NCBI GenBank assembly: GCA_001788925.1
Contig: MFXS01000036.1
Span: 19,223 to 81,338, forward strand
Source of the DNA: Candidatus Peribacteria bacterium RIFCSPHIGHO2_01_FULL_55_13
GTDB lineage: Bacteria; Patescibacteriota; Gracilibacteria; Peribacterales; Peribacteraceae
Direction: 5' to 3'
DNA: 62,116 nucleotides
Shown here piece after piece: positions 2 through 61,375 of this stretch. Made by a program: the position numbers and the translations under genes. The notes beneath the pieces are model-generated. The model saw only the letters and a list, made by a program, of their open reading frames with translations. It did no database searches and was not told the origin of the DNA. Every line of letters starts with the position of its first letter. The first letter of the stretch is position 1.

Positions 2-784
2 CGCATCGCTGTTGTGGGAAAACCGAACGTCGGAAAAAGTTCGATCGTGAACGCACTGATGTCGGACCCGCAGCGCGCCTCTTCTCCCCGGATCGTTTCA
101 GAAATTCCGGGAACGACTAGAGACGCCGTGGATACCGCCATCCGCTACAACGACCACGATTATATTTTTGTGGACACGGCAGGCATCAAGAAAAAGAAAG
201 AGGAGACGCCGGGGCTGGAAACCCTCGCCTATTTCCGCTCGATCCAGGCGATCAGCAATGCGGACATCGTCGTGCTCGTGCTCGATGGTACCCAGGCCAT
301 CACGCGCCAGGACAAGCGCATCGCGCAGATGTGTATTGAAGAGGGCAAAGGGCTGATCCTTGCGGTGAACAAGAGCGACGGCATGGAACTCGAGCAGAAG
401 AAAAACACAGTCAACGATGTGCAGCTCACGCTCCCCTTCTGCCGCTTCGCACCGATCATCCTCTGCTCCGCCAAATCCCGGGATGGACTCCTGAAGCTCT
501 TCGATCTCATCGAGACGGTGCAACGCAACCGCGTCCGTAGGATCCCAACGAAAGATCTTCATAACTGGTACACCGAAACCGTGCGGGGGCAGCCCATGGA
601 TGAACTCGCAAAATCCAAGCACATCACCCAGGCCGACGACGTCCCGCCGACATTCGTGGTGTTTGTGAAAGATCCGAAGAAAGTGAAAGTTTCTGAATTG
701 AAGTTTTTGGAGAGGAGATTGCGGTCGACGTTTGCGTTTGAGGGAACGACGGTTCGGTGGATAACAAAAGGGCAGAAGAATTAG
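2..784 (+). CDS. der: GTPase Der/EngA, second GTPase domain plus KH-like C-terminus; 5' end cut by window edge
   Basis: Frame open from base 2 (RIAVVGKPNVGKSS Walker A, DTAGI, NKSD G4); stop TAG 782-784. Confidence 0.9.
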   Translation, partial: RIAVVGKPNVGKSSIVNALMSDPQRASSPRIVSEIPGTTRDAVDTAIRYNDHDYIFVDTAGIKKKKEETPGLETLAYFRSIQAISNADIVVLVLDGTQAITRQDKRIAQMCIEEGKGLILAVNKSDGMELEQKKNTVNDVQLTLPFCRFAPIILCSAKSRDGLLKLFDLIETVQRNRVRRIPTKDLHNWYTETVRGQPMDELAKSKHITQADDVPPTFVVFVKDPKKVKVSELKFLERRLRSTFAFEGTTVRWITKGQKN

Positions 785-804
785 GAATTAGGAATGAGCA
801 ATTA
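779..804. repeat. Heptad-word hairpin family 1 (AATTAGG/AATGAGC words), left arm of a split inverted repeat
   Basis: AATTAGGAATTAGGAATGAGCAATTA pairs 22/27 with reverse complement of 1243-1268; overlaps der stop codon. Confidence 0.7.
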
Positions 805-858
805 TCCCTGTTTTGGGTGAACGTTTGTACACCTGTATTTTTTGTATTTTTGCGTAAA

Positions 859-1245
859 ATGATCAGAATGACTACAAGTAATCCCCTACCGGAAAAGGCA
901 TTGCGATTCTCAATTCATGCAGTCCAAGTCTGTCAAAAAATGATCAAGCAAAGAGAGTATGTACTGAGCAAGCAATTGCTCAAATCTGCGACCAGCATTG
1001 GGGCAAATATTGAGGAAGCAAAATATGCGCAGAGTAAGCGAGACTTTCTCTCAAAAATGAATATCGCGCTTAAGGAAGCATCCGAAACCCAATACTGGAT
1101 TAAAGTTATCAGGGCATCCGGCTATGGATCAGATGAAGTATGGAATCCACTGGCAACTGAAGCACACGAATTAACAGCTCTCTTGGTAGCCATAACGAAA
1201 ACACTCAAAAGAAAGCTACAACTTGAAAACGATGATCATTGCTAA
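859..1245 (+). CDS. Four-helix-bundle protein, 23S rRNA intervening-sequence protein family (TIGR02436-like)
   Basis: SIGANIEEAKYAQSKRDFLSKMNIALKEASETQYW is the family signature; ATG 859 preferred over the ORF-track start 757, which overlaps der and the repeat arm. Confidence 0.8.
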   Translation: MIRMTTSNPLPEKALRFSIHAVQVCQKMIKQREYVLSKQLLKSATSIGANIEEAKYAQSKRDFLSKMNIALKEASETQYWIKVIRASGYGSDEVWNPLATEAHELTALLVAITKTLKRKLQLENDDHC

Positions 1246-1268
1246 TTGCTACTTCCTCATTGCTAATT
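1243..1268. repeat. Heptad-word hairpin family 1, right arm
   Basis: TAATTGCTACTTCCTCATTGCTAATT; contains the stop codons of both the four-helix-bundle gene (1243-1245) and the convergent LOG-like gene (1267-1269). Confidence 0.7.
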
Positions 1269-1875
1269 ATCCTTTCCCTTGTCGTAAATCTTTGACGCGT
1301 CCGTCTTCATGGATCGGAAGTGGGAACGCTTTGATCGCGACTTCGAGTTTGGTCAGAAGTGCGGCCGGATCATCGTCGAAAACCATGTTCGGCGGAATCT
1401 TTCTCTTGCAAAGCTCTTCCACCACGTGCGGGATGTCGTTGCTGATGCCGCCGGTATTGGTGAGGATACCGATGGGGCGCCCCTCGTCGTAAGCGATGGT
1501 GAATTCATTAAGGGTGCCGATGCCGCCGCCGACGATCACAACGGCGTCGGAGCTGCGGATATTGATGATGTCACGCTCCATGAATCCCTGACCCGTGTAG
1601 ATGATGATGTCGTTGTCGTGCGGGGAAAGATACTCGTTCACGTGCTCGTACTCGGAGAACGCCGGAGAGACGCCGAGTGTGAGGCCGCCGGATTCCTTTG
1701 CCCCCAGAAGCGCATCATGCGGCAATCCCGGGCACGCTCCGTTGATGAAGATGTGGCCGCGCTTCGCGATCTCCTCGCCGAGTTTCCTAGCCTTCATGCG
1801 CGCATGCGCATCCTCGGTCTGCGGACCGGAAGCCGAACCCATGACGCCGATTTTGAGTTTGTGGTGGTATGCCAC
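1267..1875 (-). CDS. TIGR00725/LOG-family (lysine-decarboxylase-like) protein
   Basis: KIGVMGSASG and VVIVGGGIGTLNEF motifs; GTG start at 1875. Confidence 0.8.
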   Translation of the reverse strand: MAYHHKLKIGVMGSASGPQTEDAHARMKARKLGEEIAKRGHIFINGACPGLPHDALLGAKESGGLTLGVSPAFSEYEHVNEYLSPHDNDIIIYTGQGFMERDIINIRSSDAVVIVGGGIGTLNEFTIAYDEGRPIGILTNTGGISNDIPHVVEELCKRKIPPNMVFDDDPAALLTKLEVAIKAFPLPIHEDGRVKDLRQGKG

Positions 1876-1958
1876 TGCGGAGGCTATTGTAACGGGAATT
1901 GAGAAATCTCGTTTTTAGGTCTGGAAATATTATACCATAATTTATAGTATGGTGCACT

Positions 1959-2573
1959 ATGGTCGAAAACACCCCTTCCACATACAACCCCCAGGAAGTC
2001 TTGGCTTCCCTGCGCGAAAAGGCAGCCAAGGGATTCGACAGAAGTGATCTTACCCTCTTCAACACAGCAATCACGGTGCACATCACCGAATTTTCTCTCA
2101 CGGAACGGGGCGAACTGTCCTCGTTGTTTGGTTCCTATCAATCGCAATTCGAGCAAAAGCAAGACAAACCGGCCGTACAGTCGCAAGACCCGTTCCGAAT
2201 AGTTCCCCCGCTCCCGGCTGATGCACAAGGTGAAGAACCGGAACTCACGCGACGGGAAGACATTATCGCAGACGGGGATTTTTTCTTTGAGCGCCTGATG
2301 ACGGAACTGGAACAGCAATCCGTGAAAGAGATACATAGGGGACACCCATCATTACGCACTGCCTGCACCTCCATATTTGACTCAGAGCTTCCCCAGGATA
2401 TTCGCGATGAAGCGGTCATGGACGTGATAAGAGCGATCAACGCAGGAGAACTGCGCAAAAAAGTGGGCTGGACTCTCTGTTGGCTTCTTGTTGATGGTGT
2501 AGTAATCCCGATTGCAAAAGCAAAAGAATTGTTTGGACAATATTATCGCGCCAAACGCCCGTACAAGGATTGA
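1959..2573 (+). CDS. Hypothetical protein
   Basis: 204-aa ORF filling an otherwise empty interval, no recognisable motif. Confidence 0.5.
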   Translation: MVENTPSTYNPQEVLASLREKAAKGFDRSDLTLFNTAITVHITEFSLTERGELSSLFGSYQSQFEQKQDKPAVQSQDPFRIVPPLPADAQGEEPELTRREDIIADGDFFFERLMTELEQQSVKEIHRGHPSLRTACTSIFDSELPQDIRDEAVMDVIRAINAGELRKKVGWTLCWLLVDGVVIPIAKAKELFGQYYRAKRPYKD

Positions 2574-2583
2574 GTGATCCGGA

Positions 2584-3624: not shown

Positions 3625-3643
3625 ACGAAAAGTATGACGGAGA

Positions 3644-3707
3644 AATTAGAAATTAGGAATTAGCAATGAGCAATTAATTGCTAATTCCTCATTGCTAATT
3701 GCTAATT
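3644..3707. repeat. Heptad-word hairpin family 1, complete (arms adjacent, centre GCAATTAATTGC)
   Basis: AATTAGAAATTAGGAATTAGCAATGAGCAATTA / TAATTGCTAATTCCTCATTGCTAATTGCTAATT, about 28/33 paired, followed by a T-run; lies between two minus-strand genes. Confidence 0.8.
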
Positions 3708-3717
3708 TTTTCTGGTC

Positions 3718-4212: not shown

Positions 4213-4270
4213 CTCGGAGGGTTAGTCTACTCCCTAGTGCATTTTATGCAACAACTCTTGGGGGCACCGC

Positions 4271-4359
4271 CGTGACTCGTGATCGGTGATTCGTGATTCG
4301 CTCTGATTCACGCGCACGTGAGCGAATCACAAATCACGAGTCACGAGTCACGAATCACG
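4271..4359. repeat. Heptad-word hairpin family 2 (CGTGATT/CGTGACT words)
   Basis: CGTGACTCGTGATCGGTGATTCGTGATTCGCT ... AGCGAATCACAAATCACGAGTCACGAGTCACGAATCACG; sits in a divergent promoter region, so it is not simply a terminator. Confidence 0.8.
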
Positions 4360-4404
4360 AATAATTATTGCCCTTATTATACTTGAGATGCATGATGTCT
4401 TCCT

Positions 4405-4798: not shown

Positions 4799-7399
4799 TT
4801 AACGAACTATTCCTATACGATCCTCGATTTCTTGGTCCACGAACACCTTCTTCCGCCCGTACTTCATCCTGCTGTATTCCTTGATGAGCGCCGCAAGCTT
4901 GTCGTTGCGCGTAGATTCGTCGTAGATCGTGGACATGGAGAACGGCCGTGAGGTGACATTGTTGATGTTGAGCTTGCAGTAGCAGTTGAAGTTGGGAATG
5001 CCGATAGCGTCCTGGTCGGAAACCACGGGCGCCATTTCTTTCGCCATGTATTCGGCGTCCTCCGCGCCGATCTTGAAGCTCATGATGGTTCCCACGTTAC
5101 CGAACACCGCATCACGCATCTTGGTGCCGGCCTGACCGTAGGATTCGGTCTTGCCCACCAGCTGCCCGATATACTGGTGCGCCATGATGAGGGCGAGCTC
5201 GTACTTGCGGGCCTCGGAGAGAATGGTGGCGAAGGCGTCGGTGACGAAATTCTGGAACTCGTCGACGTAGAGATAGAAGCGCCGGCGCTGGGCGCGCGGC
5301 ACATCGGCGCGGGACATCGCGGCCATGTTCACCTTGTTCACGAAAATAAGGCCCAGAAGCTGCGCGTTCACATCGCCGATCTTTCCCTTGCTCAGGTTCA
5401 CCAAAAGCACCTTGCCGCTGTCCATCACTTCGCGGATGTTGAAAGCGGATTTCGGCTGCCCGATGATGTTGCGCATCGTGGTGTTCGTGATGAAGGGACC
5501 GAACTTCGAGCTGAAGTACGGGATCATTTCCTCTTTTTCGCGCTGTCCGGTCTTTGCAATTTCGTGCTCCCAGAAGCTTCGGACGACCACATTTCTGCAT
5601 TTGCTGACCTTGTACTTCTGGAATTCCTCGTCCACGAAGAGCCGGGGCACGTCGATGAGCGTGGCGCCCTCTTCTTCGTCGTCCATCAGCGTAAGGCATC
5701 CGTTGCGAAAGTAGTGCTGAATGCGCGGACCGAAGATCTCGTTGCCGAAGAGCTTCAAAAAGATTTCCATCGCGTCGAGCGAGGCGCGGTCTTTCTCTTC
5801 GGGTGTCTTGGCCTCGAGAAGATTGAGTCCCATCGGGCGCTGGCCGTCGGAAGGATCAAACACGATGATGTCTTTGGCGCGCTCCTTCGGCGTGTGCGCG
5901 AGCGCATCCTCGATGAGGTCGCCGTGCGGATCCACGATGCAGAGCCCGTCGCCGTTCGCGATATCCTGGCGTGACATCCAACTGATGAGCGAGGATTTTC
6001 CACAGCCGGATTTTCCGATGACGTAGTGGTGGCGCGTGCGGTCCTCTCCGCGGAAGCGGATTTTGGTCTCCACCGCGCGGTAACGGTTGATGCCGAGCAG
6101 GATGCCGTCCGGCGGAGCATCCGGCGGCGGAGGGAGCACGCGGTACGTGATCCACTGGATGATCGGCATCTTGTTGTAGCGGCTGTCCGGGAAGTGGTAG
6201 AGCCCGGCGAGTTCCTTCTCCGTGAGCATGCATTCCTTGTGCAGGTAACAGTTGACGCGATTCTTCCAGAGCCAGTGGATGACAGGCGCGTTCAGCGCGT
6301 GCGGCAGGAAATCGATGAACATCCGCTTGTTCACAAGCACGTTGCCGTAGAGATCCTTGAACGCGTTGAAAGCGACCTGAATGTTGTTGGTGAGTTCGGT
6401 GGCGCGCTGCGTGCTCTTGGATGACGCCATGATGCGGATGCTGGCGTGATAGAAACTCATGCCTCCCTTCTCCGCCATGCGCTTGTAGAGCTCTTCCTCC
6501 GGCTGCACCATGCGCACGAAGGAGTCGCCGCCTTTGGCGCCCGGGGCGTTGGTGCTGGAGGAGGTGAATTCGGAAAGGCCACTCAGGATGAACCCGAGCA
6601 CGGGGATATGCGCGAACATCCCCTCTTTCTTGCCCTTGAATCCCGCGCTCGCGGCGCGCTTGGTGTTCCTGTTCCACTTCTTGCTGAGAGCCGGCGTGAG
6701 CACGATCTGAATGGCGGCCACCTCATCACGCTCCATTTTGGAGAGCACGTTGGAAAGCCCGTTGAGCGGATCATCCTGCATGAATTCGTACGTGCGCAGC
6801 GGGTAGCAGAATTTCTTCTGAAACTTGAGGTAGTAACCGATCATGCTGTAGCCCTTGGGCCGCACTTCCGGCGTCGGCTCCAATGTCACCTCGGCATCGC
6901 CGTAGAAAGCGGTGATCTGTTTTTCCACGATGGAAATAAACTTCGGCTGCGTGACAACGAAGAACAGCAGCTGCCCCTTCTCCACGTACATCTCGAAGCT
7001 GATACGGATATCGCGTGTGATCCAGAAGTGGATGGACTGCCAGAAGTCGAGGTTGCGGACTTCCCAGAGCGCGCGATAGAGCTGCTCCATCACCGCGACT
7101 TTTTCTTTGAAATCTTTTTCCGTGCGCTTCTCCTGGTCGAGTTTCGTATCGGACCGCGGCAGCACCACCTTCATGGAAACGAGCTTGCGGCTTTCGAAGT
7201 GCGCCATCGCGAAGCGAATCACCCGCTTCACGATCGCCCAGGCGAAGTACAGCGAGGCGATGAAGACGGTGTTATTGACAGGATCCACCCGGTACCACTC
7301 CCACAGATCGATCCAGATATGGGCGTTGACGATCGTCGTACTGAGAGCGACGACGACCCACAGGAGCGGCCAGAAGAGGATGCGGAGGAGCGCGAGCAC
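4799..7399 (-). CDS. TraD/VirD4-like (type IV coupling protein-like) P-loop ATPase with N-terminal TM segments, paralog 1
   Basis: Walker A GKSGCGKSS, IVDPHGDL, Walker B FYLYVDEFQNF, MAHQY; GTG start; roughly 70% identical by eye to 39026-41512 across the compared C-terminal ATPase segment. Confidence 0.65.
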   Translation of the reverse strand: MLALLRILFWPLLWVVVALSTTIVNAHIWIDLWEWYRVDPVNNTVFIASLYFAWAIVKRVIRFAMAHFESRKLVSMKVVLPRSDTKLDQEKRTEKDFKEKVAVMEQLYRALWEVRNLDFWQSIHFWITRDIRISFEMYVEKGQLLFFVVTQPKFISIVEKQITAFYGDAEVTLEPTPEVRPKGYSMIGYYLKFQKKFCYPLRTYEFMQDDPLNGLSNVLSKMERDEVAAIQIVLTPALSKKWNRNTKRAASAGFKGKKEGMFAHIPVLGFILSGLSEFTSSSTNAPGAKGGDSFVRMVQPEEELYKRMAEKGGMSFYHASIRIMASSKSTQRATELTNNIQVAFNAFKDLYGNVLVNKRMFIDFLPHALNAPVIHWLWKNRVNCYLHKECMLTEKELAGLYHFPDSRYNKMPIIQWITYRVLPPPPDAPPDGILLGINRYRAVETKIRFRGEDRTRHHYVIGKSGCGKSSLISWMSRQDIANGDGLCIVDPHGDLIEDALAHTPKERAKDIIVFDPSDGQRPMGLNLLEAKTPEEKDRASLDAMEIFLKLFGNEIFGPRIQHYFRNGCLTLMDDEEEGATLIDVPRLFVDEEFQKYKVSKCRNVVVRSFWEHEIAKTGQREKEEMIPYFSSKFGPFITNTTMRNIIGQPKSAFNIREVMDSGKVLLVNLSKGKIGDVNAQLLGLIFVNKVNMAAMSRADVPRAQRRRFYLYVDEFQNFVTDAFATILSEARKYELALIMAHQYIGQLVGKTESYGQAGTKMRDAVFGNVGTIMSFKIGAEDAEYMAKEMAPVVSDQDAIGIPNFNCYCKLNINNVTSRPFSMSTIYDESTRNDKLAALIKEYSRMKYGRKKVFVDQEIEDRIGIVR

Positions 7400-7527
7400 G
7401 GTGTTCTATCTATTTTATCACAAAAATGACAATGGCTCCATGGTAATTCATTCGTGAAGAAAAGTGGAAAGAGGATAACGGAAAGAGGAACGTTCTTCTC
7501 TTTGTGCAGCCAACTTTCCGCTTTCCA

Positions 7528-8619
7528 CTATTCGTTTTCCGCTCCGCAGGTAACCACCTCCATCCGCATCTCCCGCTTCACTCCTTTCGCTGTCGCAAAG
7601 GTAAAGACATAGTCCCCGCCGGAAGAAGGCGTGAAGCTGAAATGCTCCTCGGGCGACACCCAGTCCTGCATGCGGACAAAGCGGCCATCGGGATACCGTA
7701 CGCCGCGGACAACGAACCATTTGTTGGCTTTGAGCACGAGCGCAGATCCCGCCGCCTGGCGATGGGGAATGCCGCGCTGAAAGCGCACGTCGCGGGTAAG
7801 GCGCTGCTGAAGGCGTGGGGCTTCGGTGATCTCCGCATCCGGAGCCAGGCTGCATCCCGAAACAAGTGTGGCATCTCCCAGGCGCTCGAAGCGCGCGTTG
7901 ATCACTCCCCTGGACCGCTCGGCGATCGTGGTGAACGCAGCGACGCTCAGGTCCATGTCGCGTCCTTCCACATACGGCCCGCGGTCGTTGATGCGCACGG
8001 TGACGGTCTTTTCATTCTCGATGTTTGTCACTTTTACCAGAGTGTTATGCGGAAAACTCCGATGTGCTGCCGTCAATTGATGCATGTCAAAGGTCTCGCC
8101 GAACGCGGTGCCATCGCCGTGAAAGTTCTCACCGTAGAGACTGACTTCATGAACTTCTTCTACAAGTTTCTGATCAAGATTGCGCATCATCGCGAGGAGT
8201 TCTTCCTCCGAGACGACGACCGAGAGATCTGTTTCGGAGACGACGGGGTAACGCTCCATCATCGCGGGAAGATGTTCGCGCTGCATGAGATCAAGTTCTT
8301 CCACGTTGCGTGTGCGGTAGAGCCAGAGCAGCGCGTCCTCAAGAGTCAGCGGTGTATCTGGATGAAATGCACCGTCGCCGGGACTCTTCGAATCGCTGTC
8401 TCCATCCAGGAGACCGCGGTTTTTTGCGTAGGTGATTTCCCGCTCGCCTTTATCCCCTTCGGTAACGTCGAAAAAGGGCTTCTCGCGGGTGTCATACACC
8501 GCCCGGTTGATGCTCCCCCAAAGCAGCAAAAATCCGTCCCGTCGGGAAATCGGTTCCGCGGCTTGGGCTTGCGGAATACCGATGGCGAACATGACAAAAA
8601 TCGCAAGGAAAGATTTCAC
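7528..8619 (-). CDS. Secreted RlpA-like double-psi beta-barrel lytic transglycosylase family protein
   Basis: Signal peptide; TAAHRSFPHNTLVKVTNIENEKTVTVRINDRGPYVEGRDMDLS DPBB motif. Confidence 0.8.
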   Translation of the reverse strand: MKSFLAIFVMFAIGIPQAQAAEPISRRDGFLLLWGSINRAVYDTREKPFFDVTEGDKGEREITYAKNRGLLDGDSDSKSPGDGAFHPDTPLTLEDALLWLYRTRNVEELDLMQREHLPAMMERYPVVSETDLSVVVSEEELLAMMRNLDQKLVEEVHEVSLYGENFHGDGTAFGETFDMHQLTAAHRSFPHNTLVKVTNIENEKTVTVRINDRGPYVEGRDMDLSVAAFTTIAERSRGVINARFERLGDATLVSGCSLAPDAEITEAPRLQQRLTRDVRFQRGIPHRQAAGSALVLKANKWFVVRGVRYPDGRFVRMQDWVSPEEHFSFTPSSGGDYVFTFATAKGVKREMRMEVVTCGAENE

Positions 8620-8667
8620 GGGGAAATGTTCTCAGAAATCCAAGATATTTGCCATTGCGGGAGAAGG

Positions 8668-8860
8668 AAAAATGACCGATGACCGAGCAGGGGGAATGAC
8701 CGATGACCAATAACACAATGACCAGGCAGGAGGAATGATCGATGACCAATAACCCAATGGCCAAGCAATACACAAACACAAAGGCTGCATCTTGGTCATT
8801 GGCTCTTGGTCATTGGTCATTCACATTGTTTGGTCATTGGTTCCCGGTCATTGGTCATTT
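8668..8860. repeat. Heptad-word hairpin family 3 (AATGACC/GGTCATT words), long composite inverted repeat
   Basis: Left arm AATGACCGATGACC...AATGACCAATAACACAATGACCAGGCA, right arm TTGGTCATTGGCTCTTGGTCATTGGTCATT...GGTCATTGGTCATTTTT; shares a module of about 35 nt with 27283-27424 and 29535-29658. Confidence 0.8.
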
Positions 8861-10231
8861 TTACAACGCCTTCCATCCCTCCGCCCGCACGATCTGATAC
8901 GCCTTTGCACGTTCTTCGCGCTTGAGCGACTGCAGGGTCTCGGGGCCCACCGATCCGGCTCCATCATCGCTCAGACTATCGACAATGCCCGATGCGACTT
9001 GATAATCGAAAACGGATGAACGCGTGAGTGATCCGAAGTTCCCATTGATCTTTTCTTCGGGGAAATATCCGCGCTCAGCGAGGAGATGCTGGAGAAGACG
9101 CACGCGCGGACCGCTGTGTCCTGTCGCGAGGAACATATCGAGCGTCATTCCTTTTTCAAGCATCAGCTGTTCCACGTGATGGACCGTGAGATATTTGTCG
9201 GCAACGATCGCGATGTGCCTGCGGTTCCATTCCGTCTGAAGCGCTTTCTTGGTCATCGGCCCGATGCGCCCGGCGCCGGGATCGATAGCGGTCCCGACAA
9301 GTCCCTTCTCCTGCTGGAACTGAAGAATGGCTCCGTGAAGCGCAAGGGAGTACGCGCCGTCGGTGCGGCCGGCATAGTAGCCGAGGAAACGGAGGATACG
9401 TTGCGCTTGGGCGGTGCGGCTTTCCGAACTCCCCTTTTCAACGATGCCGTCGATCGGAATCAGGGCGTCACTACGGCGCGACGCGGCGAGAAGATATGCG
9501 GCGGCATTTTCGGTGAGACGGTCGGAGGGCTCGCTGAGCGCAAAGTCTTTGATGAAATGACCAAGCGCCTTCTGGGTATCGGGACCGAAGTAGCCTGAGG
9601 AAGGACGGGAGAAGTACCCCGCCGAACGGAGATGATCCTGAAGGATAGCCGCGGAGAGATTGCGGTCGCCGAGCTTGGGCGTGAGTGCGAGAAGATTTTC
9701 CGTCTGCACACCAAAAGGCGAGAGCCGTGCCATCGGCGCGGGGAGCCGCGCAAGATCGAAATCGTTTCCCGGCTGAGCCGACCCCACGGGGTACACGGTG
9801 CCGCGGATGCGCTGCACGCCGAACGCAAGAGCGCGGGCGAGTCCTTCTTCGCCGTGGCCGACCCAGACGTCGAGGCGGTGTGCGCCGGAATCAAGGACCT
9901 GAATGGCGCCGCCGCGGTCGTGGATGGTGAGCGTGCCGAGACCCGGGAGCGTGACTTCAGTACCGAATCCATACGCCGGAGGCGCGGCAAGCATGCCCGG
10001 GTACACGGCTGTGCCGTCGGCCGCGGTGTGCCCTTCGCCGTTGAGAATCTTGTCGGCTTCGTAGCCGCCACGCACGTAGCAGCACTGCCCAGGCAGCGGC
10101 GAATAGTACGCCGTGAGGATGAACTCCTGTTCGTAGGGAGCGTTCGGATCACGTCCGACCACGTTCATTGGAGCGATGAACGCCAGAAGCGCTACGAGCG
10201 CGCGCATGCGCAGAGGGAATGTTTGTTTCAT
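8861..10231 (-). CDS. Secreted 3D-domain (MltA-like) protein with three peptidoglycan-binding (PG_binding_1-like) repeats
   Basis: YYSPLPGQ...GTAVYPGMLAAP...IHDRGGAI 3D motif; three repeats of the type LQxxLxxxGYFxGxxDGxFG. Confidence 0.75.
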   Translation of the reverse strand: MKQTFPLRMRALVALLAFIAPMNVVGRDPNAPYEQEFILTAYYSPLPGQCCYVRGGYEADKILNGEGHTAADGTAVYPGMLAAPPAYGFGTEVTLPGLGTLTIHDRGGAIQVLDSGAHRLDVWVGHGEEGLARALAFGVQRIRGTVYPVGSAQPGNDFDLARLPAPMARLSPFGVQTENLLALTPKLGDRNLSAAILQDHLRSAGYFSRPSSGYFGPDTQKALGHFIKDFALSEPSDRLTENAAAYLLAASRRSDALIPIDGIVEKGSSESRTAQAQRILRFLGYYAGRTDGAYSLALHGAILQFQQEKGLVGTAIDPGAGRIGPMTKKALQTEWNRRHIAIVADKYLTVHHVEQLMLEKGMTLDMFLATGHSGPRVRLLQHLLAERGYFPEEKINGNFGSLTRSSVFDYQVASGIVDSLSDDGAGSVGPETLQSLKREERAKAYQIVRAEGWKAL

Positions 10232-11299: not shown

Positions 11300-11348
11300 G
11301 AAACCCGAAACCCATTAAACCCACCAAACCCACAAAACACACCAAACC
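11300..11348. repeat. Single-armed tandem heptad tract (AAACCCN words)
   Basis: GAAACCCGAAACCCATTAAACCCACCAAACCCACAAAACACACCAAACC in the divergent spacer between the aminopeptidase and pilin genes. Confidence 0.6.
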
Positions 11349-11374
11349 TATTCATTGTCCAAAACCCCCTTTTC

Positions 11375-11386: not shown

Positions 11387-12289
11387 ATGATGCTTTCACT
11401 TCTCCGCACCACCCACTCTATCCGCCGTACGACACAGCGTATCGGCACCATTGCCACGACTACGGCGATGCTCTTTGGCATGAGCCTTCTGACACTCGCT
11501 CATGCATCCGTCTTCTGCCCCGGCGGCAGCTGCAACGGCATCGATTACGGAGTCAACTACGCGGCGAACGACATCGGGCTTTCCACAAACTCCCCCCTCG
11601 CGACGATCAACAGCATCATCGATACTGCAAAATTTTACGTCAACATCCTCGCGATCGCCGTCATCGTCATCGCGGGCTTCTACCTGATCCTCGGCCTCGG
11701 CAGCGACAATTCGAAGGAGACCGCGAAGAAGATCATCCTCTACACCGCCATCGGCATCGTCATCATCAATCTCGCAGACGAAATCGTCGCGTTTTTCAAC
11801 GACCTCACGACGGGCACAGCCACTGCAACGTTCATCACCCTCATCCAGAACATTATCGACATCGTCACGAGCTACGTTGGCATCCTCGCGGTCGCGGTCA
11901 TCATCATCGCAGGCTTCTACCTGATCTTGGGACTCGGCAGCGAGAACTCGAAAGAAACCGCGCGCAAGATCGTCCTCTACACGGCCGTCGGCATCATCAT
12001 CATCGCGCTTGCCAATGTCATCGTCGACTTCTTCCAGAGTATCAACGACCCCACTCTCTCGATCGATTTGCGGCAGAACATCCTCGACATCATCCTGTTC
12101 GTCATCAACTTCGCTGCGCTCCTCGCAGTTGCAGCCATCGTCATCGCAGGCATCATGCTGATTCTGAGTTTCGGGGAGGAGGGAAGGAAAGACACGGCCA
12201 AGAAGACCATCATCTACGCCATTGTGGGTCTCATTGTGATCGTCCTCGCGTCCGCCATCGTCCGCTTCGTGGCGGAAATCTTCACCTAA
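11387..12289 (+). CDS. Triple tandem VirB2/TrbC-like (T4SS-pilin-type) repeat protein with signal peptide
   Basis: Three units of about 70 aa (nt about 11597-11806, 11831-12040, 12068-12286), each hydrophobic helix - GLGS(D/E)NSKETAxKI - hydrophobic helix. The ORF-track start 11222 runs through the repeat tract and overlaps the upstream gene. Confidence 0.7.
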   Translation: MMLSLLRTTHSIRRTTQRIGTIATTTAMLFGMSLLTLAHASVFCPGGSCNGIDYGVNYAANDIGLSTNSPLATINSIIDTAKFYVNILAIAVIVIAGFYLILGLGSDNSKETAKKIILYTAIGIVIINLADEIVAFFNDLTTGTATATFITLIQNIIDIVTSYVGILAVAVIIIAGFYLILGLGSENSKETARKIVLYTAVGIIIIALANVIVDFFQSINDPTLSIDLRQNILDIILFVINFAALLAVAAIVIAGIMLILSFGEEGRKDTAKKTIIYAIVGLIVIVLASAIVRFVAEIFT

Positions 12290-12297: not shown

Positions 12298-14625
12298 ATG
12301 CCCGGCCGCTCCTCCTTCCTCCGGCAGATGACGGCCCTCGCGATTCTCGTCGCGGGTATCGCCGTTGGCATCGAGCTGACGCAGGCCCAGCAGTCGCAGG
12401 CCGAGGAGGTGACGCTGCCGCTTGGATCAGTGTTCGAGATTCTGGCGCAGGAAGGCGGCCCCGGCACCCAGTATGCTTGGGTGCTTTCGCTCGACCGGAC
12501 GTTTTTGCAGGCGGGACGCGGACGCGCCCTGCGCACGCGCTTCTCGCAGCCCGGGAAATATCTTCTAAGCGCGGAAGTGGTCCCTGCCCGTCCGGAGGGC
12601 GAGCCAACCAGAGGCAAAAGCATCCGCCGCTCGTTTGTGATCAACGTGAAGGAAGATACGGTGCCTCCAGAAGCCTCGGCAACCGTCACGACGGATCCGC
12701 CGCACGTCTCGGGACTGATCGGGCTCAGTGAAACGCAGCAGCTTGTAAAGATTATTCCACCGCCGGGGATCGTAAGCGCCCTTGCCGTAGACGCGGACGT
12801 GAACGTGGACGAGGACGGGGACGGAACCGCGGACAATGACCCGAGCAGCGCCGATACGTTCCTCGGCACCGACGCCCTGCCACTCTTCCTGTGGATCACG
12901 GGAGACCCTCCGAAGACCTTTTCACTCACCGGACAAATCGCGGACGGCTCCACCTTCACCCAGCAGTTCACCGTACATATCGGAGAGGCACCCGTGCCGG
13001 GAGAGGAACCTACCCCCCAGACGGGAGGCATCGGGTACACCGAACGCGAAAACGGTTCCGTACATCTGCGGATGCAGGAGGATCCACCGGGAAATACCCC
13101 TGTGCTGCCGCTGTGGGATTTCGGAGACGGAACCCAGAGCATGCACCTGGAGCCCGTCCACTCCTACGGTTCTTCGGGAACCTATGTCGTTCGTGTGCGG
13201 CTCAAGGACCTGCGCAACGGTATCGACATCCGCGATCTGCAACAGTCGATCCTGGTGCGCGGAAGTTCTGATGCCGCGCCGACCGATCCGGAAACGCCCC
13301 TGGAGGAAGAACCCAAGCCCGAGCCCGGCAGAACATCGAGAATCATGAGACTCGTCATCAAGCTTCTTCTGTTCCTCGTTGTTGCCGCCGCCATCGGTGG
13401 CGCCGCGACGTTTGCGTTCCTGAAACTGCGGCACGGTAAATCCCTCGCCGACCGCCTCGAGGAAGCCGACAAGAAAATGACCATCGGCAAGGAAGGAGCA
13501 GGAACGGAGATCGCTCCGATGAGCCTGCCGGAAATCGTGGATGAAGCACCCAAAAAGCCGGCACCTCTTCCTGCTCCCACTCCCGCAAAAGAGACAGTCG
13601 CTCCTGCATTATCTCCGGCGCCGGTTCTCTCCGATACCTCCATACCCGACTGGCTCAACCCGACCCCGAAGAAGGCAGAACCTGCACCAGCTCCCGCACC
13701 TGCACCGAAACCTGTGGCGCCCGCTCCTGCGCCAGCCCCCTCACCGAAGCCTGCTCCTACCGCTCCTGCACCAGCTCCGACACCTCCTGCTGCTCCCGCT
13801 GCGAAAGAAGCGCCAAAGCCACAGGCTCCGGTCTCGGGCCCCGATGGACCGCTGCCCGCATGGCTGCAACCGAGCAATGGAACGACTCCGGCTCCTGCTG
13901 CGACACCGGTCGCGCCGACACCAACACCTGCACCTGCGCCGACGCCACCCGCTCCCAAACCTGTGATTGCTACGGCTCCGACACCGGTCACTCCTCCCGT
14001 TACTGCTACACCTCCGAAATCTCCCGATCTCCCCACTCCCAATCTCCCGACCTCCCCACTCCCAACTCCCGATGCGCCGATGCCTGCATGGCTGCAGCCT
14101 GCTCCCCCAAAAACTCCGGAAACAGTAAAGCCTGTAGCCCCGACACCTCCGCCTGCACCAATCGCATCGACACCGGCTCCCGTACCTGTAGCCTTGAAAC
14201 CGGCACCGGCTCCAGTCACACCTGCGCCCATACCAGCTCCTACACCGGCTCCGGCGCCGATATCTGCTCCTGCTCCGATCGTACCTCCTTCCGTACCGGC
14301 CCCTGCACCAAAGCCGACAGCGGCGTCAGTAACCAGTAACCCGCAACCCGCAACTTCACCCCCGACAGAAAAAGTGTTATCCGATAAAGAACGTGAGAGA
14401 CGCAGGCTCAAGCGCCAACGCTACCGCCAGAACAAAGCCAAGCGCGAAGTCGAAGCAAAGCAATCGGGAACTCCCGCACCGCAAGCTCCAACGAAACCCG
14501 AACAACGCCCCGACGATGCCCCGGTCGCCTTCATCCGCGCCGAGAGCATTGAACAGAAGCCGGAACCCAACACGAAACCGGTAACCAGTAACCCGCAACC
14601 ACCCCCCAAGGACATCGCGGCATAG
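12298..14625 (+). CDS. Surface/membrane protein with PKD-like domain, one TM helix and a long Pro/Ala-rich tail
   Basis: WDFGDGTQSMHLEPVHSYGSSGTYVVRVRL PKD signature; TM segment LLLFLVVAAAIGGAATFAFL; then about 380 aa of APAP/TPxP low complexity. Confidence 0.75.
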   Translation: MPGRSSFLRQMTALAILVAGIAVGIELTQAQQSQAEEVTLPLGSVFEILAQEGGPGTQYAWVLSLDRTFLQAGRGRALRTRFSQPGKYLLSAEVVPARPEGEPTRGKSIRRSFVINVKEDTVPPEASATVTTDPPHVSGLIGLSETQQLVKIIPPPGIVSALAVDADVNVDEDGDGTADNDPSSADTFLGTDALPLFLWITGDPPKTFSLTGQIADGSTFTQQFTVHIGEAPVPGEEPTPQTGGIGYTERENGSVHLRMQEDPPGNTPVLPLWDFGDGTQSMHLEPVHSYGSSGTYVVRVRLKDLRNGIDIRDLQQSILVRGSSDAAPTDPETPLEEEPKPEPGRTSRIMRLVIKLLLFLVVAAAIGGAATFAFLKLRHGKSLADRLEEADKKMTIGKEGAGTEIAPMSLPEIVDEAPKKPAPLPAPTPAKETVAPALSPAPVLSDTSIPDWLNPTPKKAEPAPAPAPAPKPVAPAPAPAPSPKPAPTAPAPAPTPPAAPAAKEAPKPQAPVSGPDGPLPAWLQPSNGTTPAPAATPVAPTPTPAPAPTPPAPKPVIATAPTPVTPPVTATPPKSPDLPTPNLPTSPLPTPDAPMPAWLQPAPPKTPETVKPVAPTPPPAPIASTPAPVPVALKPAPAPVTPAPIPAPTPAPAPISAPAPIVPPSVPAPAPKPTAASVTSNPQPATSPPTEKVLSDKERERRRLKRQRYRQNKAKREVEAKQSGTPAPQAPTKPEQRPDDAPVAFIRAESIEQKPEPNTKPVTSNPQPPPKDIAA

Positions 14626-18467: not shown

Positions 18468-18545
18468 TGGGGCGATCGATGGGATTTGAACCCACGACCC
18501 TCTGGACCACAACCAGATGCTCTAACCAACTGAGCTACGATCGCC
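18468..18545 (-). tRNA. tRNA-His (GTG) with encoded G-1 and CCA
   Basis: G-GCGATCG-TA-GCTC-AGTTGGTTA-GAGC-A-TCTGG-TTGTGGT-CCAGA-GGGTC-GTGGG-TTCAAAT-CCCAT-CGATCGC-C-CCA folds as a canonical cloverleaf; G-1 pairs with C73. Confidence 0.9.
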
Positions 18546-18796: not shown

Positions 18797-18818
18797 GCCC
18801 CCTCGCAAGCGAGGGGGC
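18797..18818 (-). terminator. Hairpin downstream of the ParB-like gene
   Basis: GCCCCCTCGCAAGCGAGGGGGC, perfect 10-bp stem; a related hairpin GCCTCGCAAAGCGAGGC is at 18601-18617. Confidence 0.5.
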
Positions 18819-18859
18819 ATTTAGGATAGACAAGTCTGTCGGTTGTGAACGTTTCTGTT

Positions 18860-19720: not shown

Positions 19721-19805
19721 AGAAATACCCTTGTTGTGAGAGACCAGATCTATCCTATTGACACTTTATGTATATAGATATCTTATAGTCAATTCATATG
19801 TCCGC

Positions 19806-41512: not shown

Positions 41513-41573
41513 TGCATATCGCTCACAACGAAGGTTGAATGCATCCTGCTTATCTTATGGAATACATGCATCC

Positions 41574-41600
41574 GTAGAGACGGACCTGTGGTCCGTCTCA
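41574..41600. repeat. REP hairpin copy 1 (variant)
   Basis: GTAGAGACGGAC-CTGTG-GTCCGTCTCA. Confidence 0.75.
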
Positions 41601-41649
41601 TAACGATCCATATTTTACGCCGGATCTGTGGTCCATTTCTGGCCCTATC

Positions 41650-41676
41650 GGAGACGCACCAAAGGTGCGTCTCTAC
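41650..41676. repeat. REP hairpin copy 2, overlapping the RAYT stop codon
   Basis: GGAGACGCAC-CAAAG-GTGCGTCTCTAC; the RAYT stop TAG is the reverse complement of 41673-41675. Confidence 0.8.
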
Positions 41677-42233: not shown

Positions 42234-42353
42234 CCTCCCATCATGAAAAGGTGGCGGAGGTTTGTCAGCTGTACGCACGTACACCTGACGATTTTGGAAC
42301 ACAGAAAATCGATGCTAATCGTTCCATCTCTAAAGATATTGATGTTGTATTTT

Positions 42354-49974: not shown

Positions 49975-50137
49975 CTGCACACTTCCGTCAAATCTCGAAA
50001 AACAATAGGTCACGGGCAGGCCGAAATGAAAAAATCACGCGTCGATGGGGCATTCTCTGGAGAGATCAAAAGATACAACGCAACGCAAGTTTGTTATGAG
50101 GACACAGTCTTAAAAAAGGGAAAAGCGAAATCGAGAG

Positions 50138-50196
50138 TTGGGGAGTTCGGGAGCTCGGGCGTAGTACGATCTCCCCACTCCCCATCTCCCCATTCC
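50138..50196. repeat. Heptad-word hairpin family 9 (GGGGAGT / CTCCCCA words)
   Basis: TTGGGGAGTTCGGGAGCTCGGGCG-tagta-CGATCTCCCCACTCCCCATCTCCCCATTCCCG; imperfect pairing. Confidence 0.65.
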
Positions 50197-50239
50197 CGAT
50201 GCTCTTCAACCTTTCCTATCTCATCGATAAGCTGTGGAT

Positions 50240-51858: not shown

Positions 51859-52872
51859 CTATACATCGTTATTCTTACCGATCAGCCTCACTTCACAATC
51901 CACTGCCTTCGCTGCCCGGAATGCCTCCCACGTTTTCCTCCCTCCCTCCACAAGCACACTCGTAATGCCATGAAAATCTTGTGTCGGCGTCGTGAGGACA
52001 CGAAATAATGCTTGCATTTCAAATACTCCGGAAGCATCCATCGGAATCTGAATTACTCGTACGCCGCACTCACGAAGCTCCACCATTTTTTCTTTTGAAT
52101 CCCCGGAATCCTTGGTAACCACCATCGTCCCCTTTCCCATCTCGCTACTTACAATTTTCGCACTTAATGGAATTCTTAGATCTGGATCCAGAACTATCCG
52201 TAGCGGCTGCTGCCTAGTCATTGGTTCTTGATCATTGGTCATTCGTGCCGTAAGGAATGGATCATCACTCACTACCGTCCCCACCCCCACAAGAATCGCA
52301 TCATGCTTCGCTCGCAGAAATGAATGCGACCATCGGTTTTGCTCGTCACTCGTGATCTTCATTTTTGATCCATCTTCATGAGCGATTTGGCCCTTGCGCC
52401 CTTGCGCCCTTTTCAAGGTGATCCACGGTCTCCCCTTCGTTATCAGTGATACAAATCCCCTGTTAAACCATTCGCATTGCGCTCTTTCAATCGGTCCGAC
52501 AACCTCAATTCCATTTTTTTGTAATTCTTCTACTCCTTTTCCCGATACCTTCGGATTGGGATCAAGCATCCCAAAGACCACACGCTTGATGCCGCTTTTG
52601 ATAATCGCATCTGTGCATGGTGGTGTCTTTTTTAGTGTATGACAGCAAGGCTCTAAATTTAGATACAGCCCATCCTCTTGCTGTATTTTATGATCTAATT
52701 TATTGATCAATTTAGCTTCCGCATGGTGGCTGCCAAACTCCTCATGATGAGCTTCTGCAATGATTTTCCCGTCGCGAACAAGCACAGCGCCGACCATGGG
52801 GTTGATACCGGTATGGCCGCGGGCACGGGCGGCGAGGGAGAGGCAGCGGTGGAGGAAGGGGGCATGATCCAT
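51859..52872 (-). CDS. ribD: RibD-like bifunctional pyrimidine deaminase/reductase (orphan; contains two repeat-word segments)
   Basis: HAEAKLI, LEPCCH..TPPC deaminase zinc site; reductase-domain VGVGTVVSDDPFLTAR ... PLRIVLD. Confidence 0.8.
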   Translation of the reverse strand: MDHAPFLHRCLSLAARARGHTGINPMVGAVLVRDGKIIAEAHHEEFGSHHAEAKLINKLDHKIQQEDGLYLNLEPCCHTLKKTPPCTDAIIKSGIKRVVFGMLDPNPKVSGKGVEELQKNGIEVVGPIERAQCEWFNRGFVSLITKGRPWITLKRAQGRKGQIAHEDGSKMKITSDEQNRWSHSFLRAKHDAILVGVGTVVSDDPFLTARMTNDQEPMTRQQPLRIVLDPDLRIPLSAKIVSSEMGKGTMVVTKDSGDSKEKMVELRECGVRVIQIPMDASGVFEMQALFRVLTTPTQDFHGITSVLVEGGRKTWEAFRAAKAVDCEVRLIGKNNDV

Positions 52873-60035: not shown

Positions 60036-60079
60036 GATCGGAATGTGGGAATAGATAATGGGCTAATAATGTGGCTCCG

Positions 60080-60106
60080 GTAGAGACGCACTCGCAGTGC
60101 GTCTCA
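60080..60106. repeat. REP hairpin copy 4, 45 nt upstream of the rpoC ATG
   Basis: GTAGAGACGCAC-TCGCA-GTGCGTCTCA. Confidence 0.8.
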
Positions 60107-60279
60107 TCCAATGTTCGTGCATAAAATCCACACACGAAACACCGCAGCGTTTCCTGGCCGTTCGTCTAAAACGGGAGAAACACTTCGGTGAAGTGGATCC
60201 ACTATATATATGAAACCGATATGTGCAATAGTAATTCAGAAAATAAAAATACATTTGAAGAAGGTGCATTGATAAAAAG

Positions 60280-60416: not shown

Positions 60417-60471
60417 CTTAGACCCCTCAGGTCTAAGTAGACAATCCACCACTTAGACCCTCAGGTCCAAG
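60417..60471. repeat. Two direct copies of a 20-21-nt hairpin
   Basis: CTTAGACC-CCTCA-GGTCTAAG (60417-60437) and CTTAGACC-CTCA-GGTCCAAG (60452-60471). Confidence 0.6.
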
Positions 60472-60546
60472 CGATACCAAAATGATAAATAAAAGTCATT
60501 TACTGTAAAGAAAAAAATCAAGGTTCTCGACTATCCGAATGCTCGG

Positions 60547-60819
60547 CTATTCCCCCAGAACCCCCCTCTCCATCAGCTCCTTCCCCTCTTTTATCTTCTC
60601 GGCCCCCTGCGCAATATCGCCTGCGCGCTTCTGCGCGTCGGACCAGAGGGAACGGATGGATGCCGTCACAACGATCCGCGCATCGGCAAATCCCTGAAGA
60701 ATGGAACGAAGATCAATCGTCACGCCGCTGCCGGTCCGAGCCTCACCCGTTGTCGATGCACTGCATCCGGCCAACATTACCGCAAGGAGAACTGCCGAGA
60801 GTCGAAGGCGAGACATCAT
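60547..60819 (-). CDS. Putative small lipoprotein
   Basis: MMSRLRLSAVLLAVMLAGC lipobox when started at ATG 60819. Confidence 0.5.
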   Translation of the reverse strand: MMSRLRLSAVLLAVMLAGCSASTTGEARTGSGVTIDLRSILQGFADARIVVTASIRSLWSDAQKRAGDIAQGAEKIKEGKELMERGVLGE

Positions 60820-60876
60820 GAAACACTCCCAGTATAAACCCAATCGCAAATCGCCAATGAGGAAATCGCCAATCGT

Positions 60877-61239
60877 TTATTTATCCTTCTTCTCCTCCTT
60901 CGCATACTTCGCAAAGAGCTTCTCAAACGACCCTCCTGATTCCTCAAGTGCGCCCTCGAGCATCTCCATTTCTTTTCCGGAAAGCTGCAGTGTGGAGGAT
61001 GCATTCACAATCCCCGACTGCTCTTCTTCCTTCTCTGTCTTCGGCATTCCCTGGATGGAGGCATGCAGCACAATGAAGGCATTGCAGTCTTCGCACTTGA
61101 GCTGCAAAAGTAATGACCCCGCTGCGACGACGCGCACGGCGGAGAAATCCACCGGTACTCTGTTGCCGCACTGTGGACAGCGCATTTGCTGGTAGATCCG
61201 CTGGAGGATTTGCTGCAGGGTGTGCGGGTCGAGCTCCAT
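60877..61239 (-). CDS. Hypothetical zinc-ribbon protein
   Basis: MRCPQCGNRV...KCEDCNAF Cys pairs; ATG 61239 sits 7 nt downstream of a perfect TGCTATAAT. Confidence 0.5.
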   Translation of the reverse strand: MELDPHTLQQILQRIYQQMRCPQCGNRVPVDFSAVRVVAAGSLLLQLKCEDCNAFIVLHASIQGMPKTEKEEEQSGIVNASSTLQLSGKEMEMLEGALEESGGSFEKLFAKYAKEEKKDK

Positions 61240-61246
61240 GAGGATT

Positions 61247-61255
61247 ATTATAGCA
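61247..61255 (-). promoter_or_regulatory. Extended -10 consensus TGCTATAAT, 7 nt before ATG 61239
   Basis: The minus strand reads TGCTATAAT-aatcctc-ATG; implies a leaderless transcript. Confidence 0.45.
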
Positions 61256-61282
61256 TAGCGTGTGTACAAGGAACAGAAAATT

Positions 61283-61375
61283 GAGAGGAAACCGGGGAGA
61301 CCGAGGAGACCAAAGAACAGATTCTAAACTCCAGTGGAATCTGTTCCTTGGTCTCCCTGGTTTCATTGGTCTCCC
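61283..61375. repeat. Heptad-word hairpin family 8, second copy
   Basis: GAGAGGAAACCGGGGAGACCGAGGAGACCAAAGAACAGATTC ... GAATCTGTTCCTTGGTCTCCCTGGTTTCATTGGTCTCCC. Confidence 0.8.

Follow-up and report, generated by a model that had tools for sequence, protein, structure and literature searches.

The window analysed here is a 62,116 nt stretch from Candidatus Peribacteria bacterium RIFCSPHIGHO2_01_FULL_55_13, a member of the Candidate Phyla Radiation (CPR), and its intergenic spacers carry hairpins whose arms consist of short words, mostly of 7 nt, repeated in tandem. One of these hairpins, which lies between der and a SLOG-family gene and not in an rRNA helix, encloses a gene. The enclosed open reading frame (ORF) at 868–1245 matches Pfam PF05635 (E 1.7e-24) and TIGR02436 (E 3.6e-29), and the family profile matches PDB 2RLD (E 1.6e-49). 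The arms, 779–804 and 1243–1268, are complementary at 22/26 positions and the insert between them is 438 nt. A gene-less counterpart is the solo palindrome 3651–3700, the halves of which (3651–3676 and 3675–3700) match 779–804 and 1243–1268, respectively, at 96% each. The earlier note on this DNA had counted 779 and 1243 as two copies of the AATTAGG repeat, family 1; in fact both belong to a single hairpin, as its 5' and 3' arms, with the PF05635 gene in the loop. The leader at 805–867 is conserved in a sister genome (L177, approximately 510–572) as GGGTGRACG..TGTACACCTGT followed by a T-run, and it may hold a promoter for the gene or a small structure.

Inverted word arms bracket all six CPR copies of the gene that were examined, those of the window, L003, L011, L177, L179 and L182. 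In L003, directly 3' of gyrB, approximately 150 nt of GGGAAAA/GGGGTAA words precede the ORF and CCCTTT-type words follow it; in L011 the flanking words are CAAGTTC and GGAACTT; and in L179 and L182 there are five AATK cores on each side. The L003 array (12036–12185) contains approximately 20 words, far above the usual five, and is G-rich enough for G-quadruplexes. The L177 copy occupies the orthologous locus, between der and the SLOG gene, of the sister genome. There, at 86% nucleotide identity to the window, both arms, 440 nt apart, have been altered to AGGGAGA and TCTCCCT. As the two arms were altered in step, their complementarity has been maintained while the words changed. The locus is not a diversity-generating retroelement (DGR): the hallmark arrangement, in which an Avd gene adjoins a reverse transcriptase and there are template and variable repeats, is not seen, the ORF matches the Avd model at only E 1.2e-4 (22 bits, below the cut-off of 80), and no reverse transcriptase domain was found in those window proteins that were scanned. 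In L182, a true bAvd-family gene is without arrays.

When the window was scanned by gapped stem alignment, 11 inverted repeats scored ≥30 and every one was intergenic (Table 1); five dinucleotide-preserving shuffles, the control proposed in the earlier note, contained none. The arms are tandem words in 10 of the 11, and the remaining one, at 41572–41678, is a pair of repetitive extragenic palindromes (REPs). Together with two weaker hairpins and the split locus 779/1243, the ten bring the total to approximately 13. For twelve word hairpins, folding energies range from -28 to -93 kcal/mol (z -3.3 to -10, both strands). The expected 7 nt periodicity was recovered in a lag scan (28 nt windows with ≥22 self-matches), which gave 46 positions at lag 7 and 0–7 at the other lags from 3 to 12, and Tandem Repeats Finder (TRF) assigned period 7 to 29 of 85 rows, typically as adjacent pairs. 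While 7 nt words dominate, two families have 9 nt words and one has 8 nt words. Of the loci listed in the earlier note, those at 11308, 35167, 35910, 37190 and 60842 are single arrays without a partner, and the array at 14019–14073 is not intergenic. Nor does nearly every spacer carry a hairpin, as the note had it: approximately 13 of approximately 46 spacers of ≥20 nt do, and about half of those of ≥70 nt outside an island at 18.8–25 kb. Convergent, tandem and divergent spacers are all occupied, as had been stated, according to gene calls drawn from a codon-usage model, gene predictions for a contig with 99.99% identity, and Pfam; the sole exception among the confirmed contexts is 61283, where the flanking ORFs are without family support. 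Stop codons in all three frames were considered as what is conserved in the words; as judged by eye, a stop codon is present in only approximately 60% of consensus words, against approximately 45% expected.

Table 1. Word hairpins, word arrays and the enclosed gene in the window (the inverted repeat column gives spans from the stem-alignment scan, with scores where reported; dG in kcal/mol)
Position	Feature	Context	Inverted repeat	Folding dG
779–804	5' arm of gene-bearing family 1 element, AATTAGG AATTAGG AATGAGC AATTA	Overlaps der/engA stop codon		
868–1245 (+)	PF05635 23S_rRNA_IVP/TIGR02436 four-helix-bundle gene, 125 codons	In hairpin loop		
1243–1268	3' arm of the same element	Overlaps stop codons of IVP gene and convergent SLOG gene		
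3641–3710	Solo family 1 hairpin, no loop; two 32 nt arms, five ARTK cores each	Tandem minus-strand genes, DUF1622 to YceG	3644–3708	-28 (z -9)
4268–4362	CGTGATT/AATCACG hairpin, five ART cores in 3' arm	Divergent DUF1622/YbaB spacer	4271–4352	-51
7455–7545	Weaker GGAAAGA/CTTTCCG hairpin	Tandem spacer	7459–7533 (24)	-29.5 (z -3.6)
8668–8862	Composite family 3 hairpin, AATGACC words, 39 nt module x2.3	Begins 1–2 nt past a stop codon; A5 and T5 runs at flanks	8675–8851	-93
11308–11352	Partnerless single array of AAACCCACC, period 9	Divergent spacer		
14019–14073 (+)	CTCCCCA-type array; codes for proline-rich linker	Within PKD-domain ORF		
25846–25929	CAAGGGC/GCCCTTG hairpin, A-run and T-run flanks	Divergent, upstream of hisS	25858–25909	-48
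27280–27425	Family 3 hairpin	Convergent hisS/gyrB spacer	27284–27422 (62)	-62
29530–29662	Family 3 hairpin	rpsU (S21)-gyrB spacer, immediately after S21 stop codon	29535–29658	
31628–31720	ACGATTT/AAATCGT hairpin, five ART cores	Tandem spacer, abuts PrsW stop codon	31631–31717	
35167–35201	Family 9 single arm, ATCTCCCC/ACTCCCC; minus strand G-rich			
35910–35939	Single array, TTTCCAC x4.3	rpsB-tsf spacer		
36714–36799	TTGCCAT/AATGGCA hairpin	Convergent tsf/response-regulator spacer	36717–36796	-46
37190–37222	Single array, ATTCCTA x4.7 (family 1 word)	Between two response-regulator paralogues		
38884–38976	Family 8 hairpin, 9 nt words GGAGACCAA	Divergent PLD/VirD4-like spacer	38887–38972	-59
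41572–41678	REP palindrome pair		41572–41678	
50126–50200	Weaker family 9 hairpin, 8 nt words AGTTGGGG/ATCTCCCC	Divergent	50129–50194 (26)	-33/-41
52205–52244	Family 3 arm in frame; codes for MTNDQEPMTRQQ in variable loop	Inside ribD		
60842–60875	Single array, AATCGCA-type words			
61283–61384	Family 8 hairpin, 9 nt words		61297–61364	-54

The association between gene and arrays extends beyond CPR. A profile built from 34 homologues was used to collect 80 loci from public metagenomes, picked without reference to their flanks, and the 220 nt upstream of each gene were aligned to the reverse complement of the 220 nt downstream, with offset pseudo-genes of the same length as controls. The flank score was ≥30 at 55 of 62 loci with full flanks and at 3 of 91 offset controls (Mann-Whitney p 3.5e-23), with medians of 46 at genes and 18 at offset pseudo-genes. 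Seven was the best arm period in 59 of 80 left arms (≥60% self-match) and no other period reached the threshold; TRF returned period 7 for 211 of 419 arrays at these loci, and period 14 or 21 for 76. Locus pairs with the same word share 60% protein identity, compared with 51.5% for other pairs (p 1.4e-9), and identical words persist down to 50–70% protein identity.

Among plasmids, 31 records with a PF05635 gene were found, approximately 25 of them cyanobacterial, including 16 from Nostoc. In five of six plasmid regions examined, annotated four-helix-bundle genes lie between inverted heptamer arrays. The words include AAGTCGG x5 in Nostoc punctiforme, AATTCAA x4 plus AATG in N. flagelliforme, and AATCCCC and AATCGTA in Planktothrix, and arrays were also found in Treponema saccharophilum and Bernardetia. 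As inverted arrays surround these cyanobacterial genes, it appears that the short tandemly repeated repetitive (STRR) sequences of cyanobacteria, the hosts in which they are classically known, and the hairpins of CPR genomes are objects of the same kind. In Anabaena cylindrica plasmid pANACY.01 (L172), the PF05635 gene (155585–155932) is found between cas2 and cas1, and its AAGTAAA-type arrays are in direct rather than inverted orientation.

The arms share a defined anatomy. The canonical arm is 32 nt, made up of five A-[A/G]-T-[T/G] (ARTK) cores with three variable bases between them, and it is repeated in reverse complement as the second arm. What separates the two arms is either almost nothing, which is the solo form and that of most window copies, or a leader of 30–100 nt and a gene of approximately 120 codons. 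In 50 of 56 periodic arms, the consensus word, read 5' of the gene on its sense strand, fits ARTKNNN, where a fit by chance was estimated at approximately 0.1–0.3 given arm composition. When chains of at least three ARTK cores at exact 7 nt spacing were counted (n=126), five cores were found in 60, three in 23, four in 23, six in 7 and more in 13. TRF, which uses no core definition, gave the same quantisation: the copy-number mode was 4.0–4.9 (80/163 arrays), and the array-length mode was 32 nt, with 61 of 163 at 31–33 nt, which is five 4 nt cores plus four 3 nt spacers. Across the gyrB loci of CPR genomes (1.3 Mb), ARTK chains of four and five, and none longer, were found at spacing 7; there was no chain of ≥4 at spacings 6 and 8 or in any shuffle, and a single chain, of nine cores, at spacing 9. 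In the window, exactly five cores were found in three solo hairpins (3644–3707, both arms; 4325–4356; 31634–31665). The protein family has just two PDB entries, 2RLD and 2GSC, and in each there are five copies of a single chain. The DGR protein bAvd, a relative of the family, is a pentamer. The resemblance between PF05635 proteins and Avd is on record (PMC10053308).

Nine independent assemblies (ENA, JGI, Logan) that are 99.4–99.99% identical to the window and cover 19.7–39.9 kb were compared with it. All single-nucleotide polymorphisms (SNPs) among them are in coding DNA and none is in a hairpin, and no hairpin has been gained or lost. The single indel in 13.9 kb of clean contig is the loss of one exact 7 nt word (TAGGAAT) from the array at 37190–37222 in L082, and we conclude that the arrays slip by whole words.

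At greater distance, the contigs L001 and L089 share approximately 90% nucleotide identity with the window in genes and are collinear with it, and the alignments end at the spacers. In the S21-gyrB spacer, a hairpin is found at the same position with conserved flanks in all three genomes, but is built of AATGACC words in the window, CTTAGCT(T) in L001 and CGGTTAT/CGGTATA in L089; the hairpin has thus been retained at an orthologous site with new words. The gyrB-hisS spacer contains AATGACC words in the window and a hairpin of AAACCCAC words in L001, and at the rpsB-tsf site of the 35910–35939 array, L001 has a related array (position 2551, five cores). In the remaining spacers compared, a hairpin is present in one genome only. 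The hairpin at 36714–36799 is missing from L001 along with a paralogous gene. That gene, a response-regulator paralogue (36795–37178), shares 70% nucleotide identity with its neighbour; L001 (1763–1769) lacks both the gene and the word arrays on either side (36721–37214), and a 6 nt gap is all that lies between the flanking genes there. No target-site duplication or conserved termini were visible where filled and empty orthologous sites could be compared, in few site pairs. Near gyrB in other Peribacteria, Komeilibacteria, Parcubacteria and Uhrbacteria, there are also hairpins of tandem 7, 8 or 9 nt words, and the words differ in each.

Within the window, the words form dispersed families and are not independent low complexity; all of the family relationships proposed earlier held on sequence comparison. 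Family 1 (AATTAGG) is found at 779/1243, 3644 and 37190. Family 3 (AATGACC) has three composite copies (8654–8860, 27282–27422 and 29533–29659) with common non-periodic modules, and the two on either side of gyrB also have the centre CCAAGAAT(G/A)CATTC in common. The half copy of family 3 in ribD is 85% identical to 8783–8822; a second array in ribD, GCCCTTGC x2.8 at 52390–52411, is 150 nt away from it. The two family 8 (GGAGACCAA) hairpins share 83% identity between 38940–38974 and 61341–61375. An identical 27-mer of family 9 is present at 35169 and 50167, and CTCCCCA-type words at 14.0, 35.2 and 50.2 kb, the array at 14019–14073 being 89% identical to 35167–35201.

The overall G+C content of the window is approximately 55%. 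The gene order, which is incomplete in its first part, begins with der, IVP, SLOG, YceG, DUF1622, YbaB and VirD4-like genes, continues with hisS, gyrB, rpsU, an S41 peptidase gene, PrsW, glyS, rpsB, tsf and two response regulators, and ends with PLD, VirD4-like, REP-associated tyrosine transposase (RAYT), sortase, ychF, class II ribonucleotide reductase, ribD, fusA, rpsG, rpsL and rpoC. The closest genomic relatives of the gyrB gene (27426–29486, minus strand) are Patescibacteria/Candidatus Peribacteria, and its product is 97% identical to that of L001 and 75–78% identical to those of a group of Peribacteraceae. An Rfam scan of the window returned two tRNAs and nothing else, with no rRNA. A cyanobacterial origin of the window, considered because TTGGTCA is an STRR word, was rejected, as gyrB and the genes around it are those of Peribacteria and HIP1 (GCGATCGC) occurs just three times. 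Beside tRNA-His (18468–18544) is a low-G+C island (18800–25050; 45–47% versus 55%) that includes tRNA-Cys (23187–23258), a DUF6551 gene and the paralogous ORFs 23474–24241 and 24272–25054. As there are no word hairpins between 18.8 and 25 kb, this island is probably an integrated foreign element. Type IV secretion-like genes are scattered over 4799–7399, 11387–12289 and 39026–41512; they encode two VirD4/TrwB-like coupling proteins and a type IV secretion pilin, the gene for which is built of three 237 nt repeats.

A separate REP/RAYT system is located at 41567–42302, with further REPs at 60073–60107 and 61940–61974. The RAYT ORF (41673–42302, minus strand) scores E 4e-16 against NCBIfam NF047646, which does not reach the cut-off, and contains HUH and Y motifs. 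REPs at 41567 and 41641 are just beyond one end of this ORF and one at 41913 is inside it. The GTAG foot is confined to this family, D4 (41567, 41641, 41913, 60073 and 61940). The word hairpins are thus unlike the REPs, as the earlier note maintained, the latter being a separate GTAG-type family clustered around the RAYT gene. RAYT was considered as the mobilizing enzyme of the word hairpins and was rejected on account of its own distinct REPs.

The explanation we favour, if by a modest balance, is that the hairpins of the window are the CPR form of STRR-type heptamer hairpins, the same element as the arrays that bracket PF05635/TIGR02436 genes. In the mechanism we propose for them, each arm would be the predicted binding site of one four-helix-bundle homopentamer, with one core per subunit. 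Gene and arms together would form a selfish cassette resembling the intervening sequences (IVSs) of rRNA genes, and the gene-less solo hairpins would be its satellites or landing sites. Where transcribed, the stems of 25–70 bp would be processed as putative RNase III-type sites and would act on adjacent genes as elements that set 3' ends or stability, much as rRNA IVS stems do. This RNA role fits because hairpins follow stop codons in tandem and convergent spacers; the divergent spacers do not require it. Given the match between core count and chain count, it is probable that the arms bind the pentameric PF05635 protein. A more specific proposal, that the 32 nt arm is the cognate site of a PF05635 homopentamer and that protein and arms form a self-propagating, IVS-like class that seeds gene-less satellites, is tentative, and we hold it to be rather doubtful.

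Several observations weigh against these ideas. The PF05635 gene is found in only one of the approximately 13 window hairpins, and the others have no direct link to it; the gene could instead home into pre-existing hairpin loops. The case for pentamer binding is inferred from the match between five cores and five chains and from the correlation between word and protein, in which shared ancestry and pairs that are not independent are confounders. The 80 metagenomic loci had the highest scores among at least 591 candidates, and they are without taxon labels. There is no RNase III gene in the window, and a G-U asymmetry favouring one strand, which was sought as a sign of function at the RNA level, was not found in the hairpins, the two strands of which fold alike. 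The CAAGGGC, GGAAAGA and both GGAGACCAA 9-mer hairpins break the rule of ARTK cores at 7 nt spacing, ART cores are in the 3' arm and not the 5' arm at 4271, 31631 and 36717, and family 3 consists of three-word runs and non-periodic modules with no clean five-core arm.

Alternatively, the hairpins might be intrinsic terminators, perhaps bidirectional, or stabilizers of mRNA 3' ends that grew by slippage and are selected for structure, in which case the link to the gene would be incidental. Hairpin edges do fall 0–3 nt from stop codons at 8862, 29662, 31717 and in both convergent spacers, A-runs and T-runs flank 3641–3710, 8668–8862 and 25846–25929, the S21-gyrB hairpin has been retained in three genomes despite its different words, and termination or stabilization has been proposed for the STRR hairpins of cyanobacteria (PMC2670836). 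T-runs are found at some loci only (3708, 8859, 25920 and 27422), and the hairpins do not combine the short G+C-rich stem, U-tract and location downstream of a gene on its strand that typify intrinsic terminators; their stems are often A+T-rich and, at 25–70 bp, much longer than termination requires. Termination cannot be the role of all of them, a point already made in the earlier note, as five are in divergent spacers, where no 3' end would be formed. Selection for structure also leaves the ARTK core, the 7 nt spacing, the five-core quantisation and the enclosed gene unexplained, and we regard this explanation as unlikely.

Mobilization in trans by a transposase, for example the RAYT encoded at 41673–42302, would make the hairpins non-autonomous elements akin to miniature inverted-repeat transposable elements or to REPINs. 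Dispersed families with common non-periodic modules, presence or absence and word replacement that vary between genomes with approximately 90% identity, and the presence of a RAYT gene in the window would all fit such an origin. However, the RAYT has GTAG-type REPs of its own at 41567, 41641 and 41913 and their motif is in no word hairpin, neither target-site duplications nor conserved termini were seen in the few pairs of filled and empty sites compared, and the families are so unlike in sequence that one sequence-specific transposase would not recognize them all. The sole full-length relative, moreover, carries a four-helix-bundle gene and no transposase. We consider this origin improbable.

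An equally improbable explanation is that the hairpins are a neutral by-product of polymerase slippage that favours 7 nt steps, combined with template switching at quasi-palindromes that mirrors the arms. This would account for the exact one-word indel between strains, for variable copy numbers and degenerate words, and for a heptamer excess that a passage in PMC4679880 describes as widespread in bacteria. Slippage, however, predicts a broad range of lengths, and the observed mode is sharp, at five cores and 32 nt; nor does slippage predict an ARTK core conserved across phyla, identical words at 50–70% protein identity, or symmetric arrays around one gene family. The absence of SNPs from hairpins across the nine near-identical assemblies, in which coding regions carry many, is also contrary to neutrality. 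Finally, assembly artefact or chance low complexity has practically no standing as an explanation, as the hairpins at 25.9–39.9 kb are base-for-base the same in the nine independent assemblies, which excludes an artefact, and the shuffles contain no comparable inverted repeat.

Tandem heptamer repeats have so far been without an accepted function or origin. If the pentamer proposal is true, two puzzles are joined by one quantised rule, five cores and five subunits, and the class reaches from intergenic spacers to rRNA helices in a range of bacteria, among them cyanobacteria, Bacteroidota, Spirochaetota and CPR. It would then account for the heptamer excess of bacterial genomes, for the nature of cyanobacterial STRR sequences and for the function of an Avd-related family of hypothetical proteins. 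For CPR bacteria, the elements occupy a considerable part of what little intergenic DNA a 1.2 Mb genome has, mark operon boundaries and likely shape transcript ends, and their turnover is rapid enough for use as markers of strains and species.

Among known systems, the word hairpins can be compared with REPs and REPINs (PMC3116915). Both are families of short intergenic palindromes at gene ends, but a REP is a single palindrome of 20–35 nt with a conserved GTAG foot and a link to RAYT, while the word hairpins have no such motif and are not clustered around RAYT. Also comparable are the TAACTGA intergenic heptamers of Beggiatoaceae, cyanobacteria and Bacteroidetes (MacGregor 2015, PMC4679880) and the GGGAATC/GGGGAYT repeats of Xanthomonas and Nostoc (Rehm 2015, PMC4692102). 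These are also intergenic 7 nt units, usually in 2–6 copies, that vary between relatives, and in reverse complement their words (AGTTATC, AATCCCC and AGTCCCC) fit the core pattern. Most of those arrays repeat one word in direct orientation, and they lie immediately 5' of start codons or can form G-quadruplexes; inverted pairs were noted there occasionally. In the window, arrays are as a rule paired with their inverse, and many words are found side by side. Passages in PMC4679880 and PMC4692102 credit Mrazek 2007 with the finding that heptameric repeats are in excess in many bacteria.

PF05635/TIGR02436 proteins are abundant and structures of the family have been solved. They are still called functionally uncharacterized (PMC11270868). 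Their membership of the HEPN superfamily was considered and dropped, as a HEPN survey paper makes no mention of the family. An IVS in a 23S or 16S rRNA gene with a PF05635 (S23p) ORF is found in, for example, Coxiella burnetii and Leptospira; IVS stems are cleaved by RNase III in Coxiella, Leptospira and Salmonella, and mobility of the gene has long been suspected (PMC4990558). Insertions in CPR rRNA genes also carry a PF05635 gene (PMC11270868). Like these, the element at 779–1268, and it alone in the window, has terminal inverted repeats that pair into a stem, with a PF05635 ORF in the loop, and in both systems ORF-bearing and ORF-less versions are found at the same kind of site and the elements are regarded as selfish and horizontally spread. 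They differ in that the window element is in a spacer between protein genes and the IVS in an rRNA helix. The window stems are tandem heptamers; excision by RNase III is known for the IVS and would apply here by analogy.

The proposed correspondence between cores and subunits has a parallel in TRAP, an 11-mer ring that binds 11 triplet repeats with 2–3 nt spacers. There, too, evenly spaced cores and ring subunits are equal in number. The protein fold is unrelated and the spacing in the window is 7 nt, such that binding here would be an analogy only.

A further comparison is with the STRR sequences. TTGGTCA, which is equivalent to AATGACC, the commonest word in the window, is presumably the STRR2 word of Mazel 1990. 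STRR-type repeats have served to fingerprint cyanobacteria since 1990. The title of a 1995 paper by Jackman and Mulligan describes variable but structured behaviour, a pattern of evolution also seen here. The earlier note had not recognized the architecture as a described class, but intergenic hairpins of 7 bp units are already known as STRRs in filamentous cyanobacteria, such as those in the hupS-hupL spacer and upstream of hoxW, with function unknown (PMC2670836). We found no link between heptamer arrays and PF05635 or four-helix-bundle proteins in the literature, with subscription journals not covered, and the five-genome Peribacteria paper does not mention the hairpins. Set against STRRs, the window differs in its host, a CPR bacterium with a genome of approximately 1.2 Mb and 55% G+C and not a cyanobacterium, in the 8 or 9 nt units of some families, and in the PF05635 link and five-core 32 nt arm, which are absent from the accessible STRR literature. 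In both, however, intergenic 7 nt units in tandem are followed by their inverse to form a hairpin, many words coexist in one genome, and spacers are variable yet structured among close relatives, and cyanobacterial arrays flank the PF05635 family just as the arms at 779–1268 do.

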